Sequence record: PQ615101
Direction: 5' to 3' (one strand)
Length of the DNA stretch: 64,000 nucleotides
Source of the DNA: Shigella phage SP21535
Shown: positions 4,930 through 32,499 of the stretch, one piece after another
How positions within the stretch are numbered: position 1 is the stretch's first letter
How the letters are laid out: every line of letters starts with the position of its first letter
Program-made: the position numbers and the translations under genes
Notes under the pieces: model-generated
Database searches by the model: none
Seen by the model: only the letters and a program-made list of their open reading frames with translations
What the model was told of the DNA's origin: nothing

Positions 4930-5604
4930 TGAGTACAGTTTTTAATACTAAACAGGTTGATGTTTTAAAAGAACCTATGTTTTTTGGTTCAGGTCTTGGA
5001 ATTGCGCGTTATGATATTCAACGACATAGGGTATTTGAAGAACTTATTGAACGTCAGCTCTCGTTTTTCTGGCGTCCTGAAGAAGTAAACTTGATGATGG
5101 ATGCTACTCAATTTAATAAGCTTCCTCAGTATCAACAAAATATTTTTACTAATAATCTGAAGTATCAATCATTACTTGATAGTATTCAAGGTCGTGCGCC
5201 GTCTGCTGTACTTATGCCATTGCTTTCAGACCCAAGCCTTGATACATGGGTTGCTACATGGACTTTTAGTGAAACTATTCACAGTCGTTCATATACTCAT
5301 ATCATGCGAAATCTTTATACTGATCCGTCAAAGGTATTTGATGAGATTGTATTAGATGAAGCTATCATGAAACGTGCTGAATCCATTGGACGTTATTATG
5401 ATGACGTTCTGATTAAAACCCGTGAATGGGAAAATGCTAAAGAATTTGTAGAACTAGCTAAAGAATCTCCTGATGCCGACTTTCGTTTAAACCGGGCTAT
5501 TAAGCAAGAAGCCGAAGCTAAACGTGCTTTAATGAAATCTCTTTACCTCTGTTTGCACGTTATTAATGCCTTAGAAGCTATTCGTTTTTATGTATCTTTT
5601 GCGT
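4929..5604 (+). CDS. nrdB: Ribonucleotide reductase beta subunit, exon 1
   Basis: Translation ends ...ALEAIRFYVSFA, the conserved NrdB helix; the frame is interrupted by the intron after gcgT at 5604. Confidence 0.85.
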
Positions 5605-15764: not shown

Positions 15765-16033
15765 TGTTTGTTGTTCACACTATTTATGAAAATGAAGGTA
15801 ATACTACACGTGATTACGGTCACGTAAATCAATTTTTTAGATGCAATCCAGAATTCCGAGCTCAAAAAGACGAACGAATTTTTAAAAAATGTGTAGAGCA
15901 AGGTTTCATTTACGTCAAGCACTGGATGCAAGGAAATAAAGTTAGAACTACATATCATAGGTCTTTGCCTGAGCTTAATGATGAATTGATTTATAATAGA
16001 GCTGTAAACCAAACCTTGAAGGATGAGCAATGA
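15764..16033 (+). CDS. Hypothetical protein (89 aa), upstream of DNA ligase
   Basis: ORF overlapping both the preceding stop and the ligase start. Confidence 0.6.
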   Translation: MFVVHTIYENEGNTTRDYGHVNQFFRCNPEFRAQKDERIFKKCVEQGFIYVKHWMQGNKVRTTYHRSLPELNDELIYNRAVNQTLKDEQ

Positions 16034-17493
16034 TTCTTAAAATTCTGAATGAAATAGCATCTATTGGTTCAACTAAGCAGAAACAAGCAATTCTTGAAAA
16101 GAATAAAGATAATGAATTGCTTAAACGAGTATATCGTCTGACTTATTCTCGTGGGTTACAGTATTATATCAAGAAATGGCCTAAACCTAGTATTGCTACC
16201 CAGAGTTTTGGAATGCTGACCATTACCGATATGCTTGACTTCATTGAATTCACGTTAGCTACTCGGAAATTGACTGGAAACGCGGCAATTGAGGAATTAG
16301 TAGGTTATATCACCGATGGTAAAAAGGATGATGTTGAAGTTTTGCGTCGAGTGATGATGCGAGACCTTGAATGCGGTGCTTCAGTATCTATTGCAAACAA
16401 AGTTTGGCCAGGTTTAATTCCTGAACAGCCTCAAATGCTGGCAAGTTCTTATGATGAAAAAGGCATTAGTAAGAATATCAAATTTCCAGCCTTTGCACAG
16501 TTAAAAGCAGATGGAGCTCGGTGTTTTGCTGAAGTCCGAGGTGATGAATTAGATGATGTTCGTCTTTTATCACGAGCTGGTAATGAATATCTAGGATTAG
16601 ATCTTCTTAAGGAAGAGTTAATCAAAATGACTGCTGAAGCCCGCCAGATTCATCCAGAAGGTGTGTTAATTGATGGCGAATTGGTATACCATGAGCAAGT
16701 TAAAAAGGAACCAGAAGGCCTAGATTTTCTTTTTGATGCTTATCCTGAAATTAGCAAAGCTAAAGAATTCGCCGAAGTAGCGGAATCTCGTACTGCTTCT
16801 AATGGAATCGCCAATAAATCCTTAAAAGGAACCATTTCCGAAAAAGAAGCCAAATGCATGAAGTTTCAAGTCTGGGATTATGTTCCGTTGGTAGAAATAT
16901 ACGGTCTTCCTGCATTTCGTTTAAAATATGATGTACGTTTTTCTAAACTAGAACAAATGACGTCAGGATATGATAAAGTAATTTTAATTGAAAACCAAGT
17001 AGTAAATAACCTAGATGAAGCTAAGGTAATTTATAAAAAATATATTGACCAAGGTCTTGAAGGTATTATTCTCAAAAATACCGATGGATTGTGGGAAAAT
17101 GCTCGTTCAAAAAATCTCTATAAATTTAAAGAAGTAATTGATGTTGATTTAAAAATTGTAGGAATTTATCCTCACCGTAAAGACCCTACTAAAGCGGGTG
17201 GATTTATTCTTGAATCAGAGTGTGGAAAAATTAAAGTAAATGCTGGTTCAGGCTTAAAAGATAAAGCCGGTGTAAAATCACATGAACTTGACCGTACTCG
17301 CATTATGGAAAACCAAAATTATTATATTGGAAAAATTCTAGAGTGCGAATGCAATGGTTGGTTAAAATCTGATGGTCGCACTGATTACGTTAAATTATTT
17401 CTTCCAATTGCGATTCGTTTACGTGAAGATAAAACTAAAGCTAATACATTCGAGGATGTATTTGGTGATTTTCATGAGGTAACTGGTTTATGA
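16030..17493 (+). CDS. 30: ATP-dependent DNA ligase
   Basis: 487 aa; adenylation motif KADGAR (AQLKADGARCF) and OB-fold C-terminal region. Confidence 0.95.
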   Translation: MILKILNEIASIGSTKQKQAILEKNKDNELLKRVYRLTYSRGLQYYIKKWPKPSIATQSFGMLTITDMLDFIEFTLATRKLTGNAAIEELVGYITDGKKDDVEVLRRVMMRDLECGASVSIANKVWPGLIPEQPQMLASSYDEKGISKNIKFPAFAQLKADGARCFAEVRGDELDDVRLLSRAGNEYLGLDLLKEELIKMTAEARQIHPEGVLIDGELVYHEQVKKEPEGLDFLFDAYPEISKAKEFAEVAESRTASNGIANKSLKGTISEKEAKCMKFQVWDYVPLVEIYGLPAFRLKYDVRFSKLEQMTSGYDKVILIENQVVNNLDEAKVIYKKYIDQGLEGIILKNTDGLWENARSKNLYKFKEVIDVDLKIVGIYPHRKDPTKAGGFILESECGKIKVNAGSGLKDKAGVKSHELDRTRIMENQNYYIGKILECECNGWLKSDGRTDYVKLFLPIAIRLREDKTKANTFEDVFGDFHEVTGL

Positions 17494-17678
17494 AAGCTTA
17501 CTTAGAAACAATTGTCGTTGCTCAAAAAGAAGGTGGAGATGTTTCTACTTCGGTATCACAAGTCATTCTCGAATTTGTAGATGCATATGCTTATAATAAA
17601 TTTACAGAAACATTTGATGCCTACGAAAAAGGTCCAAAGTTTGAAATATATCGTACTCTCTTACCACTAGATTATTAA
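17490..17678 (+). CDS. Hypothetical protein (62 aa)
   Basis: ORF overlapping the ligase stop; followed by a terminator. Confidence 0.5.
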   Translation: MKAYLETIVVAQKEGGDVSTSVSQVILEFVDAYAYNKFTETFDAYEKGPKFEIYRTLLPLDY

Positions 17679-17699
17679 AGGCCTTCGGGCCTTTAATTT
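17677..17699 (+). terminator. Rho-independent terminator (aggccttcgggcct plus T-tract)
   Basis: GC stem with ttcg loop followed by TTTAATTTT. Confidence 0.65.
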
Positions 17700-17707
17700 T
17701 ATAAATA
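17700..17707 (+). promoter_or_regulatory. T4-type late promoter (TATAAATA) upstream of alt
   Basis: Exact TATAAATA about 24 nt upstream of the alt ATG. Confidence 0.55.
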
Positions 17708-17730
17708 GAATAAACACTAGAGAGGATATG

Positions 17731-19818
17731 ATGGAACTCATTACAGAATTATTTGACGAAGATACTACTCTTCCGATTACAAACTTAAATCCAAAGAAGA
17801 AAATACCACAAATTTTTTCAGTTCATGTTGATGATGCAATTGAACAACCAGGCTTTCGTTTATGTACCTATACATCTGGAGGTGATACTAATCGCGATTT
17901 AAAAATGGGCGATAAAATGATGCATATTGTTCCTTTTACATTAACTGCTAAAGGTTCAATTGCTAAATTAAAAGGTCTCGGTCCAAGTCCAATTAATTAC
18001 ATCAATTCAGTTTTTACTGTTGCAATGCAGACGATGCGTCAGTATAAAATTGATGCCTGTATGCTTCGTATTCTTAAGTCTAAAACTGCTGGTCAAGCTC
18101 GACAAATTCAAGTTATTGCTGATAGACTTATCCGTAGTCGTTCAGGTGGCAGATACGTCCTTCTTAAGGAACTCTGGGATTACGATAAAAAGTACGCATA
18201 TATTCTTATACATCGCAAAAATGTATCACTAGAAGACATTCCAGGAGTTCCGGAAATTAGTACCGAGCTTTTTACTAAAGTCGAATCGAAGGTCGGCGAT
18301 GTTTATATCAATAAAGATACTGGAGCTCAAGTAACTAAAAATGAAGCAATTGCAGCATCTATTGCGCAAGAAAATGATAAACGTTCTGACCAAGCTGTAA
18401 TCGTTAAAGTTAAAATTTCCCGTAGAGCAATTGCGCAAAGTCAATCATTAGAATCTTCTAGATTTGAAAGCGAATTATTCCAGAAGTATGAATCTACCGC
18501 AGCCAATTTTAATAAGCCTGCTACTGCTCCTTTAATTCCAGAAGCAGAAGAAATGAAGCTTGGAATTAATTCATTAGCTTCTAAAACTAAGGCAGCAAAA
18601 ATCATTGCCGAAGGAACCGCAGATGAACTTCACTATGACTATAAATTCTTTTCAAAAAGTGAGGTTAATGAAGTTTCTGAAAAAATTAAAGATGTAATTC
18701 TTAATGCGATTAAAAATGAACCAACTACTTCAATAAAATGTTTAGAGAAATACGCAGCAGCTGTTAATCAATTCTTTGAAGAATATAAAGATAATTGGCT
18801 TGATAAACATAATAAAACTCGTAAAGGACAGCCAGATGAAGTCTGGGAAGAAATAACTAAAAATTCCTGGAACGCAGCAAAAACTAAATTCCTCAAACGA
18901 ATGATTTATAACTTTTCTGGAATTGGTGCAGGTCCAATGATTGATATTACCATTGCCCGTGATGGTTCTAAATACACTCCATCGCAAAAGCGCGGCATTA
19001 GAGAGTATTGTGGATCAGGATATACTGACATCAATAATCTTCTTTTAGGCCGCTACAATCCAGAACGATATGATGTAATGAGTGAAAAAGAAATTGAATC
19101 TGCGATAAATAATTTAGATTCAGCTTTTGAAAATGGTGACCGTATACCAGAAGGCATTACAGTTTATCGTGCTCAAAGTATGACTGCTCCTATATATGAA
19201 GCACTAGTTAAAAATAAAGTGTTCTATTTCAGAAATTTTGTATCTACTTCTTTAACTCCTATCATTTTTGGACGTTTTGGAATTACACATGCTGGTATCG
19301 GTCTTTTAGAACCAGAAGCTCGCAATGAATTAACAGTTGATAAAAATGAAGAAGGAATAACTATTAATCCAAACGAAATAAGAGCGTATAAAGAAAATCC
19401 TGAATACGTTAAAGTTCAAATAGGATGGGCTATTGATGGAGCTCATAAAGTTAATGTTGTATATCCAGGAAGTCTCGGAATAGCAACAGAAGCTGAAGTT
19501 ATTCTACCGCGCGGATTGATGGTCAAAGTTAATAAAATAACTGATGCTTCTAATAATGACGGAACAACATCTAATAATACAAAACTCATTCAAGCTGAAG
19601 TTATGACTACAGAAGAACTCACCGAATCGGTAATTTATGACGGTGACCGTTTAATGGAAACTGGTGAATTGGTTACAATGACAGGTGATATAGAAGATAG
19701 AGTTGACTTTGCATCATTTGTTTCATCAAATGTTAAACAGAAAGCAGAATCATCTCTCGGAATTATTGCGTCTTGCATAGATATTGCAAACATGCCTTAC
19801 AAGTTCGTTCAAGGATAA
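17731..19818 (+). CDS. alt: Alt, head-packaged ADP-ribosyltransferase
   Basis: About 695 aa; N-terminus MELITELFDEDTTLPITNLNPKKKIPQIFSV..., C-terminal region with R / S-T-S / E ADP-ribosyltransferase motifs (YRAQ...FVSTSL...EVILPRG). Confidence 0.9.
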   Translation: MELITELFDEDTTLPITNLNPKKKIPQIFSVHVDDAIEQPGFRLCTYTSGGDTNRDLKMGDKMMHIVPFTLTAKGSIAKLKGLGPSPINYINSVFTVAMQTMRQYKIDACMLRILKSKTAGQARQIQVIADRLIRSRSGGRYVLLKELWDYDKKYAYILIHRKNVSLEDIPGVPEISTELFTKVESKVGDVYINKDTGAQVTKNEAIAASIAQENDKRSDQAVIVKVKISRRAIAQSQSLESSRFESELFQKYESTAANFNKPATAPLIPEAEEMKLGINSLASKTKAAKIIAEGTADELHYDYKFFSKSEVNEVSEKIKDVILNAIKNEPTTSIKCLEKYAAAVNQFFEEYKDNWLDKHNKTRKGQPDEVWEEITKNSWNAAKTKFLKRMIYNFSGIGAGPMIDITIARDGSKYTPSQKRGIREYCGSGYTDINNLLLGRYNPERYDVMSEKEIESAINNLDSAFENGDRIPEGITVYRAQSMTAPIYEALVKNKVFYFRNFVSTSLTPIIFGRFGITHAGIGLLEPEARNELTVDKNEEGITINPNEIRAYKENPEYVKVQIGWAIDGAHKVNVVYPGSLGIATEAEVILPRGLMVKVNKITDASNNDGTTSNNTKLIQAEVMTTEELTESVIYDGDRLMETGELVTMTGDIEDRVDFASFVSSNVKQKAESSLGIIASCIDIANMPYKFVQG

Positions 19819-19821
19819 ATC

Positions 19822-20207
19822 ATGGAACTTATTACATAATTATTTGACGGCGCTTCGGCGCCGGTTGTTAACTTAAATCCTAAGCATAAAATACCACAAA
19901 TTTTTGCTATTCAAGCCGGCGAAGAAAGCGTGCTTCTTGGATTTAGATTTTGTACATACACCTCTGGCGGTGATACAGATAAAACGTTAAACCAGGCGAC
20001 AAAATGATGCATATCGTAATGATAGGTGTTAATGAGAAACTATCATTAGTTAAGCTTAAAAACTTGGGTGGAAATCCAATTGGCGTCATTAATGCTGTTT
20101 TTGATACTGCTCTTCAAACAATGAAACAGTATAAAATCGACGCATGCCTATTACGCGTACTAAAAAGTTCAAGATGTAGTTTACAAGTCCCTCGTGTTGT
20201 GTTATAA
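19822..20207 (+). pseudogene. alt-like N-terminal paralog fragment, disrupted (stop at codon 6 and a frameshift)
   Basis: DNA and protein similarity to the first 130 or so codons of alt (MELIT*...VNLNPKHKIPQIFA...FCTYTSGGDT...KMMHIV...LQTMKQYKIDACLLRVLKS) with an in-frame TAA and a 1-nt frame change; truncated at promoter cassette copy B. Confidence 0.7.
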
Positions 20208-20236
20208 TAGTCTTACTGACATAACATGAGGAACAC
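20179..20236 (+). promoter_or_regulatory. Early promoter cassette, copy B (GTTTAC -35, TATAAT -10, GAGGA Shine-Dalgarno)
   Basis: Near-identical to 8026-8083; directly upstream of the ATG at 20240. Confidence 0.5.
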
Positions 20237-20239
20237 AAA

Positions 20240-20530
20240 ATGAAATCTTCTTTACGCTTTTTAGGTCAAGAACTTGTAGTTGAAGGCGTTATTCCTGCTG
20301 ATAATGCTTTTAATGAAGCAGTTTATGATGAATTTATCAAAATTTTTGGAACAGATAAAAAGTTCGGAATTTTTCCTTCTGAAAATTTTTCAAAGCCAGA
20401 GCAGACTGAAAGTATTTTCCAAGGTGTAGTAACAGGTAAATTTGAGTCAGAAGCTCCAGTAAAAATTGAAGTTTATATTGAAGACAGTTTAGTTGCTTCA
20501 GTTGCTGCTTTTATTTCATTCCGTAAATAA
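20240..20530 (+). CDS. Hypothetical protein (96 aa)
   Basis: ORF with strong SD from the promoter cassette; followed by a bidirectional terminator. Confidence 0.6.
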   Translation: MKSSLRFLGQELVVEGVIPADNAFNEAVYDEFIKIFGTDKKFGIFPSENFSKPEQTESIFQGVVTGKFESEAPVKIEVYIEDSLVASVAAFISFRK

Positions 20531-20536
20531 AAATAT

Positions 20537-20557
20537 GGGGACCGAAAGGTCCCCGTT
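20537..20557. terminator. Bidirectional terminator hairpin (ggggaccgaaaggtcccc) between convergent genes
   Basis: Perfect 7-bp GC stem flanked by T/A-rich tracts on both strands. Confidence 0.6.
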
Positions 20558-20558
20558 G

Positions 20559-21524
20559 TTATATTGCTCCTAATATTTTACTCTGCGAATTGACAATCCC
20601 TGTCATAGTATTAATGTTTGAAATGCTTCCTGCAGTTCCACCTAATCTACTGAGTCGTGAAAGCGAATTAGATAGTCCAGTAACACCTCCACTATTTCCG
20701 AGAACGCTTTGAATACCATTTATAGCAGCAGATTCAAGCCATTCAAGCGCAGCTTGCCTATCAACTGCTCCAGCCTGCATCACTCTATACGCAAAAGTAA
20801 CATCAAATGTAGTTATTTGGTTATCTCCATCATATGATAACTCAGGAGCGCTCACTGATATTGGAATGCATCCAGTGAACATCACCGCAGTATGAGGCAA
20901 TCCATTACGAGAATGAAGATTAACCTGAATATCTGCCTCGACATCTTGTGGCAAAGCACGCAATCCAGTTACTGGGTCTTGAACGGAGTTAACCCAGTCT
21001 TGCATTGCACGATAGTTACAAGCTTCTGAATCCATTCTAAATGAAATAACCAAAGGGTCTAATTCTCTCCCAGTTATACGAATATTAGGAGAATTATAGT
21101 TCCAGTCAGTTTCATAGGATAATCTGTTCTCTGGCATTTTTACGGAATATATCATCAATCCAGATGAGTTATATGCCATGTTAAAGAAGTCAATTAAATA
21201 TGTACCAACTGTAAATGAGCCTAATAAACTTTGAACTGTACGTTGACTCATGGCACCAATAAGATATTTACTAACCCCTGATTTTCTTATCAGTTTTTGT
21301 GTGCCAGCAGTAATTAGCGTGGTAATTCCCTGATTAATATCGCCTTGAGTCAATCCTAACCAATCTGAATTTAGACCCAAGTTATTATAAGAAAAGTTGC
21401 TAATTGAACTTATCAACGAAGAGCTTTTAGTTGATGGAGTTGTCGCAAAAACGCAGCTAAACATATTATTACGTTGGAAATCTGCGTTTATTGCTTGATT
21501 ATTAAATTCCTCTAAAGAATACAT
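20559..21524 (-). CDS. 54: Baseplate tail-tube initiator
   Basis: 321 aa; position and length match T4 gp54 adjacent to gp48. Confidence 0.85.
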   Translation of the reverse strand: MYSLEEFNNQAINADFQRNNMFSCVFATTPSTKSSSLISSISNFSYNNLGLNSDWLGLTQGDINQGITTLITAGTQKLIRKSGVSKYLIGAMSQRTVQSLLGSFTVGTYLIDFFNMAYNSSGLMIYSVKMPENRLSYETDWNYNSPNIRITGRELDPLVISFRMDSEACNYRAMQDWVNSVQDPVTGLRALPQDVEADIQVNLHSRNGLPHTAVMFTGCIPISVSAPELSYDGDNQITTFDVTFAYRVMQAGAVDRQAALEWLESAAINGIQSVLGNSGGVTGLSNSLSRLSRLGGTAGSISNINTMTGIVNSQSKILGAI

Positions 21525-29071: not shown

Positions 29072-29084
29072 AGGGCCGAAGCCC

Positions 29085-32472: not shown

Positions 32473-32499
32473 GGGGCTTCGGCCCCTTTCTTCATTTTG
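32473..32499 (+). terminator. Rho-independent terminator (ggggcttcggcccc plus T-run)
   Basis: Perfect GC stem with ttcg loop followed by TTTCTTCATTTT. Confidence 0.7.

Follow-up and report, generated by a model that had tools for sequence, protein, structure and literature searches.

The interval 19822–20179 of Shigella phage SP21535 (sequence record PQ615101) is very probably the non-functional relic of an old, strongly diverged tandem second gene of the Alt ADP-ribosyltransferase family, lost by a 1,699-bp deletion and then left to neutral decay; the window, as the term is used here, is the whole stretch of 64,000 nucleotides that was analysed. The relic appears to have kept no residual function. 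It is already known from phage T4 as alt.-1/alt.-2 and is thus the rediscovery of a documented feature, since a note in the T4 RefSeq record (NC_000866), quoted here in part, calls it an 'old duplication of the first part of gene alt', and Nolan et al. 2006 list "T4 ORFs alt.-1 alt.-2" among paralogous duplications of adjacent genes (PMC1524935). Its value as a discovery is small for the same reason, the relic having been annotated in T4 and mentioned in the literature; what the analysis adds is a correction to the usual description, in which the relic becomes the remains of a complete diverged second ADP-ribosyltransferase gene and not a duplicated alt start.

The window is a segment of a Tequatrovirus (T4-like) genome. 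The gene order is DNA ligase (16030–17493), alt.1 (17490–17678), alt, the remnant region (19822–20207) and alt.-3, followed by the convergent genes 54, 48 and 29, and the relic therefore lies where alt.-1 and alt.-2 lie in T4, between alt and alt.-3 and upstream of convergent gene 54. The nearest GenBank sequences over the remnant region are those of BYEP01, FJ1 and Lutter, with 98–99% identity. The two intact neighbours are as follows.

17731–19818, + strand: alt, the intact gene of the virion-packaged ADP-ribosyltransferase, 695 aa from MELITELF (open reading frame; Pfam PF03496, ADPrib_exo_Tox, E=2e-37)
20240–20530, + strand: alt.-3, 96 aa, DUF5498, an intact neighbour outside the pseudogene that fixes the synteny (open reading frame; Pfam PF17602, E=1.4e-64; T4 annotation)

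An additional in-frame ATG for alt is present at 17728. The Alt protein of the window is 98% identical to that of T2 and only 72% identical to that of T4, so that the neighbouring alt allele is T2-like and not T4-like; with a T2-like alt followed by a T4-type relic, the locus is a recombinant mosaic. The differences between the window and T4 Alt proteins cluster at residues ~250–620, and among close relatives Alt is hypervariable in its central and catalytic part.

Within the remnant region, the following features were delimited.

19822–20179, + strand: whole remnant of the second alt paralog (T4 alt.-1 plus alt.-2), made up of 347 nt of the 5' part, the deletion junction, and the last 11 nt with the ancestral TAG (base-by-base alignment to the intact T2 paralog)
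19837–19839, + strand: premature TAA at codon 6, where T4 and every intact paralog have GAA (stop seen in 10 of the 17 remnants sampled and in none of the 11 intact genes)
19849–19862, + strand: C(UUCG)G tetraloop hairpin GGCGC-TTCG-GCGCC, inherited paralog coding sequence for G-A-S-A-P (1 in the window against 0 expected; −12.8 kcal/mol)
19981–19984, + strand: frameshift site, −1 nt, an A4 run against A5 in intact paralogs (13 of 17 sampled remnants; absent in SG1, fPS-90, PTE-Eco15 and SYGD1)
20004–20207, + strand: alt.-2-equivalent open reading frame, 67 aa, in the ancestral frame past the frameshift, reading through the junction into the promoter (open reading frame list)
20160–20168, + strand: deletion junction, the single remaining copy of the 9-bp repeat CTAAAAAGT (alignment to the T2 paralog; shared by remnants)
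20169–20179, + strand: 3'-terminal 11 nt of the lost paralog, ending in its original TAG at 20177–20179 (alignment to the T2 paralog 3' end)
20180–20208, + strand: predicted early-type promoter of alt.-3, TTTACA-17 nt-TATAAT with an extended TG (11/12 consensus match; same element in T2; annotated promoter in Lutter)

At the DNA level, similarity to alt covers the first ~390 nt of that gene, and a global alignment of 19822–20239 to the alt 5' end matched at 258 of 392 aligned positions (66%). Frame 0 of the remnant reads MELIT, a stop, then LFDGASAPVVNLNPKHKIPQIF...TYTSGGDTDKTLNQATK and a further stop, and Alt homology is then taken up by a different frame as GDKMMHIVMIGVNEK...QYKIDACLLRVLKS. 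Once the stop was masked and the two frames were stitched, BLASTP against the window Alt aligned residues 1–117 at 60% identity (E=3e-46), and the possibility that the similarity to alt was not significant, which had been named as the way to refute the original prediction, is thereby decisively set aside. That prediction had also put the diverged copy of the Alt N-terminus at about 130 codons; the homology holds and the length comes down to ~115 codons (19822–20168), beyond which the interval contains the 11-nt 3' tail of the lost gene and the promoter. The predicted TAA at codon 6 is present. The 1-nt frameshift expected before KMMHIV was likewise located, as the shortening of an A5 run (intact in T2 and RB51) to A4 about 20 nt upstream of the KMMHIV codons. 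Against the T2 paralog, the window shows ~95% identity, with ~17 scattered substitutions and three disabling lesions, namely the TAA, the missing nucleotide and a 1,699-bp gap; the remnant has no uninterrupted reading frame, as it is broken by the nonsense codon, the frameshift and the out-of-frame internal deletion, and the catalytic ART domain (R / S-T-S / E-x-E) is missing from it, codons ~116–681 having been deleted.

The undamaged form of the gene is found at the same position in relatives. In T2 and RB51, an intact gene of 2,058 nt (685 aa) starts 3 nt past the alt stop and is followed by alt.-3; it goes under the names "Alt-like RNA polymerase ADP-ribosyltransferase" or "alt.-2", and of the 497 phage records matched with the T2/RB51-type gene as the query, 402 cover at least 80% of it. 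An intact second alt gene, whose presence in related phages had been proposed as a check, thus occurs in T2, RB51 and about 400 other Tequatrovirus records. The T2 protein matches Pfam PF03496 (E about 7e-20 to 8e-20), is homologous to Alt over its whole length and keeps the LYR(G), FVSTS and EAEVILPRG motifs; its identity to Alt is 44% overall, 63–74% over the first ~250 residues and 16–44% past them. All 11 intact paralogs sampled are open and keep R/STS/ExE (pairwise medians: dN/dS 0.043, dS 0.19), and in the 402 records the divergent C-terminal part of 435 residues shows at least 95% conservation. About 80% of Tequatrovirus phages keep the second Alt-like gene under strong purifying selection. 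Judging from this conservation, the gene is probably functional in most relatives, and its product is presumably delivered in the virion; a literature search on Alt and T-even paralogs found no functional study of the intact paralog. Since the paralog is strongly diverged from Alt and yet conserved among relatives, it arose long ago, whether by duplication or as an acquired, diverged member of the family. The C-terminal 435 residues have ~52% identity to a relative in QL01 and dhabil and only 31–38% to any other Alt. QL01 (KT176190) and dhabil (MN850621), in which this protein is 51–52% identical to the C-terminal part of the paralog and which have up to three Alt-like places per genome, are alone among the relatives in standing between the Tequatrovirus paralog and ordinary Alt, and would be useful for dating the duplication. 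In phages such as F26, SG1, JEP6 and others with two annotated ADP-ribosyltransferases, the second annotation turned out to be an alt.-2-type fragment ORF and not an intact gene; MLP2 simply has two intact genes.

Three known systems can be set beside the relic. The full-length gene of T2, RB51, RB27 and KIT03 (named 'alt.-2' in RB51 and RB27) is its orthologous undamaged form, with the first 345 nt ~95% identical and the same start context, hairpin, 3' end and downstream promoter; it differs in encoding 685 aa with PF03496, whereas the window lacks codons ~116–681 and has two further disabling lesions. T4 alt.-1/alt.-2 (NC_000866: T4p199, T4p198) occupies the same locus, with the same 1,699-bp junction and the same A-run frameshift, and the T4 and RB55 records are 97.4% identical to the window remnant over 418 nt. 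At codon 6, T4 has GAA and the window TAA, and there is therefore no alt.-1 ORF in the window. T4 Alt (gpAlt), the packaged mono-ADP-ribosyltransferase that is injected with the DNA, is homologous in its residues 1–117 to the N-terminal ~115 codons of the relic; Alt and the ancestral paralog have the whole architecture in common, while the relic is without the catalytic domain.

The junction itself is well defined. In T2, the 9-bp direct repeat CTAAAAAGT stands on both flanks of the segment absent from the window, upstream as CGCGTA-CTAAAAAGT-AAAAC and downstream as GAATGT-CTAAAAAGT-TCAAAATGTAG, and among simulated random junctions in the region a microhomology of at least 9 bp occurred with P about 1.1e-4. 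The junction sequence CTAAAAAGTTCAA is identical in T4 and in the window. When up to 3 mismatches were allowed, each of the 17 remnants sampled had the junction motif, with an identical reading across the junction in the alignment; a 140-nt junction-spanning query was at least 80% covered in exactly 90 records, and a 901-nt query gave 90 as well. vB_Eco_EL and fPS-90, considered as carriers of different deletions, both have the ordinary T4-type junction. In the proposed course of events, a single deletion in the lineage of T4 and the window would have removed codons ~116–681, including the whole catalytic domain. Because 9-bp direct repeats lie at the junction, replication slippage or illegitimate recombination between the two copies of CTAAAAAGT is the probable mechanism of the 1,699-bp loss. 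The deletion would have joined ~115 codons of the N-terminal part, out of frame, to the final 11 nt of the gene, and the relic would afterwards have gathered more lesions under neutrality; in the window these are the codon-6 nonsense change from GAA to TAA and a −1 slip in the A5 run.

The other way to account for the relic is the one suggested by the T4 RefSeq wording, which in the part quoted speaks of a duplication of the first part of alt: only the start of alt would have been copied, and a complete second gene would never have been present in the lineage. Within the window itself N-terminal alt homology alone is visible, which is in keeping with this reading, but it does not fit the wider comparison. 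At the nucleotide level, the relic is 95–97% identical to the 5' end of the full-length paralog, against 66% for alt; past the 9-bp microhomology junction, it keeps the final 11 nt and the stop of the full-length paralog; the full-length form is the majority state, with 402 records against 90; and the full-length paralog is homologous to Alt throughout and has a relative of 52% identity in QL01 and dhabil. That only the start of alt was duplicated is thus extremely improbable. The claim that an internal-head ADP-ribosyltransferase gene underwent tandem duplication and decay is borne out by the intact paralog at the same position and by the neutral character of the changes private to remnants.

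The distribution of the lesions was followed in 17 remnant loci, taken from phage records and IMG/VR contigs, and in 11 intact loci; a scan of IMG/VR with the remnant start sequence gave 4 contigs (2 remnant, 2 intact), and the population sample was hence drawn from GenBank phage records. The remnants fall into the following classes.

TAA and frameshift: the window, F26, Lutter, BYEP01, ACG-C40, CE1, HY03
TAA only: SG1, fPS-90, PTE-Eco15
Frameshift only: T4, EL, SP1, LH2 and two IMG/VR contigs
Neither TAA nor frameshift: SYGD1

Private extra lesions were also found, namely a 7-nt duplication in HY03, an additional −1 nt in CE1 and a change of ATG to GTG in LH2, and five different disabling alleles are present among the 17 remnants. 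Since the junction is common to all sampled remnants, the secondary lesions are mosaic, and SYGD1 shows the deletion only, the deletion appears to have come first and the point lesions later. The mosaic of TAA and frameshift may have arisen either by recombination shuffling or by independent recurrence. In SYGD1 (Escherichia phage, MW883059, positions 325–711), the deletion-only form has a single 128-aa ORF with an Alt-like N-terminus, which could be expressed and, as far as its sequence goes, might compete with Alt for packaging; this ORF is knocked out by the TAA or the frameshift in 16 of the 17 sampled remnants.

Selection was assessed over the shared 345 nt by comparing alleles private to remnants with alleles private to intact genes. 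The 18 remnant-private changes in 17 sequences, counted as alleles and not as events placed on a tree, comprise 13 nonsynonymous or nonsense and 5 synonymous ones, spread over the codon positions as 6:5:7, which does not depart from the neutral expectation of 78% (p=0.57). The intact-private changes comprise 4 nonsynonymous and 18 synonymous ones (p=4e-9 against neutrality), with 3 of the 4 coming from one hairpin-loop inversion in CT01. The two classes differ in a Fisher test (p=0.001). In this small sample, the substitutions of the remnants fit neutral evolution, as those of a pseudogene do.

The region downstream of the relic is occupied by the predicted promoter of alt.-3, whose sequence matches the T4 early (sigma-70 type) consensus of a GTTTAC-like −35 element, a 17-nt spacer and TATAAT; the −10 box is TATAAT in the window and TATAGT in T4. 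This element starts directly past the ancestral TAG of the lost gene, and in T2 the same promoter lies downstream of the intact paralog. The promoter cassette at which the copy was said to be truncated does exist (20180–20208), but the truncation point is elsewhere: the loss is the internal 1,699-bp deletion with its junction at 20160–20168, and because the last 11 nt and the TAG are kept and are followed by the promoter as in T2, the gene is not truncated at the promoter. On this comparison, the putative promoter is native to the intergenic region, having been inherited and not produced by the decay.

The hairpin, GGCGCTTCGGCGCC, lies 30 nt after the alt stop, where the remnant departs most from the alt sequence; the corresponding codons of alt form a weak hairpin of −3.8 kcal/mol. 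A perfect hairpin is indeed present at 19849–19862, as the original prediction had it, but it did not replace other sequence during the decay: every intact paralog sampled carries it as coding sequence (G-A-S-A-P), and it is therefore not a feature of decay, which rules out its interpretation as a decay scar. A rho-independent terminator was also considered and rejected, since there is no T-run, the stem being followed by GGTTGTTAAC, and the terminator scan made no call at this site; the scan does find a bidirectional terminator at 20535–20556. In CT01 (Shigella phage, OK018184), at codons 11–12 of the intact paralog, the loop is inverted from TTCG to CGAA (Ser to Glu) with the palindromic stem unchanged; this is a signature of quasi-palindrome template switching and suggests that the hairpin forms in DNA in vivo. 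C(UUCG)G hairpins have been reported as typical of T4 mRNA (PMC4371310), and the window contains 4 copies of the motif SSCTTCGGSS where 0.17 would be expected, the C(UUCG)G hairpin cores being at 17681–17690, 19851–19860, 29074–29083 (− strand) and 32475–32484. The first of these cores belongs to a strong terminator-like hairpin (17669–17692; −13.5 kcal/mol, z=−3.7) between alt.1 and the alt late promoter TATAAATA.

Two further readings would give what is left of the gene a function. It could be proposed that the 5' piece was kept because the C(UUCG)G hairpin acts at the RNA level as a 3'-end stabiliser or attenuator of the late alt transcript. The great stability of the hairpin (−12.8 kcal/mol), the over-representation of its motif in the window and its standing as a known T4 mRNA feature are in keeping with such a role, as is the constancy of the stem, which is the same in all 28 sampled sequences and is kept in CT01 under the inverted loop; against this, zero changes in 10 stem bases are expected with a chance of ~59% under neutrality (18 changes over 345 nt), which makes the constancy of the stem uninformative, the fold stands out little from shuffled sequence (z-score −2.2; 10 of 200 shuffles were as stable), the hairpin has no T-run and is uncalled by the terminator scan, and it is older than the deletion, having existed as coding sequence. 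An Rfam scan of 17600–20650 gave no credible family, its sole match being IRES_APC inside alt.-3 at E=0.84, which is attributable to chance. Retention of the 5' piece as an RNA element is accordingly quite unlikely.

The alternative that the relic was exapted to give new small genes with a function, alt.-2 (20004–20207) and in T4 also alt.-1, for instance as an N-terminal Alt-like fragment that interacts with the head-packaging or scaffold machinery, is less likely still and must be called very unlikely. The 67-aa ORF is uninterrupted in the window and in the majority of sampled remnants, the T4 annotators treated alt.-1 and alt.-2 as ORFs, an extract of the T4 annotation speaks of a stop codon and a new element introduced into the duplicate, and the deletion-only form of SYGD1 would encode a 128-aa N-terminal Alt-like fragment. 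However, the ORF is broken by the 7-nt duplication in HY03 and by the 1-nt deletion in CE1; the alt.-1 frame is shut by the codon-6 TAA in 10 of 17 remnants; a Pfam search of the alt.-2 ORF gave no match; and no good Shine-Dalgarno sequence precedes the ATGATG at 20004, where the upstream sequence is CCAGGCGACAAA, while alt.-3 has GAGGAA. Private changes number 3 nonsynonymous to 1 synonymous in the alt.-2 ORF and 13:5 over the whole relic, and these ratios, together with the frame-breaking indels in two phages, argue that alt.-2 is not a maintained gene, the counts being small. The alt.-2 ORF is thus most likely non-functional, in line with the preferred interpretation of the interval as a decayed relic of a complete second gene.

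The second gene has also been lost by other routes. In sutha (Escherichia phage, PV245934, ~5000–5130), a 1,951-bp deletion between 8-bp repeats AAGTTCGT spans from 9 nt before the alt stop to paralog position ~1,930, by which the alt C-terminus is altered and almost the whole paralog is gone, leaving a 117-nt tail ORF. PST (Yersinia phage, KF208315, 5001–7061) has a single alt gene of 2,061 nt, an in-frame chimera that is alt-type from codon 1 to ~100 and paralog-type in the rest, made by a 2,094-bp in-frame unequal crossover inside the shared 9-bp CAAACAATG; among ~499 records, the chimera was found in PST only. Because the three junctions are distinct, the tandem pair has been resolved at least three times (T4-type, sutha and PST), each time at an 8–9-bp repeat. 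Deletions between short direct repeats are familiar in T4 from the classical rII deletion spectrum. The three losses at the alt locus resemble the rII deletions in the 8–9-bp direct repeats at all of their junctions and differ from them in being natural alleles fixed in wild phage lineages and not laboratory mutants, with a mechanism that is deduced from the junctions only. It is conceivable, though unlikely, that the losses are selected escapes, the second enzyme or its N-terminal fragment being harmful or defence-triggering in some hosts, and that the rapid secondary knock-outs of the fragment reflect selection against a dominant-negative packaging decoy.

The T4 annotation wording understates the event, as T4-type phages lost a complete conserved second ADP-ribosyltransferase. 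T4 is without the second enzyme, which matters when the biology of Alt is extrapolated from T4 to other T-even phages, and T4 and the window phage can serve as natural nulls for the second conserved Alt-like ADP-ribosyltransferase. The locus also offers a clean natural case, in a lytic phage, of gene loss that recurs through microhomology and of a pseudogene decaying neutrally.

Some minor observations concern the genes on either side. Gene 54 has 966 nt in the window, T2 and Lutter and 963 nt in T4; in F26, SG1, BYEP01 and HY03, compared at window positions 20531–20559, it is annotated with 924 nt and the spacer between alt.-3 and gene 54 is longer; either the C-terminal end of gp54 varies or the annotations differ. 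The alt.1 product (17490–17678) matches Pfam PF24647, 'Phage blade protein', with E=2e-29. Together, alt.1 and alt.-3 encode conserved small proteins on either side of the alt pair.
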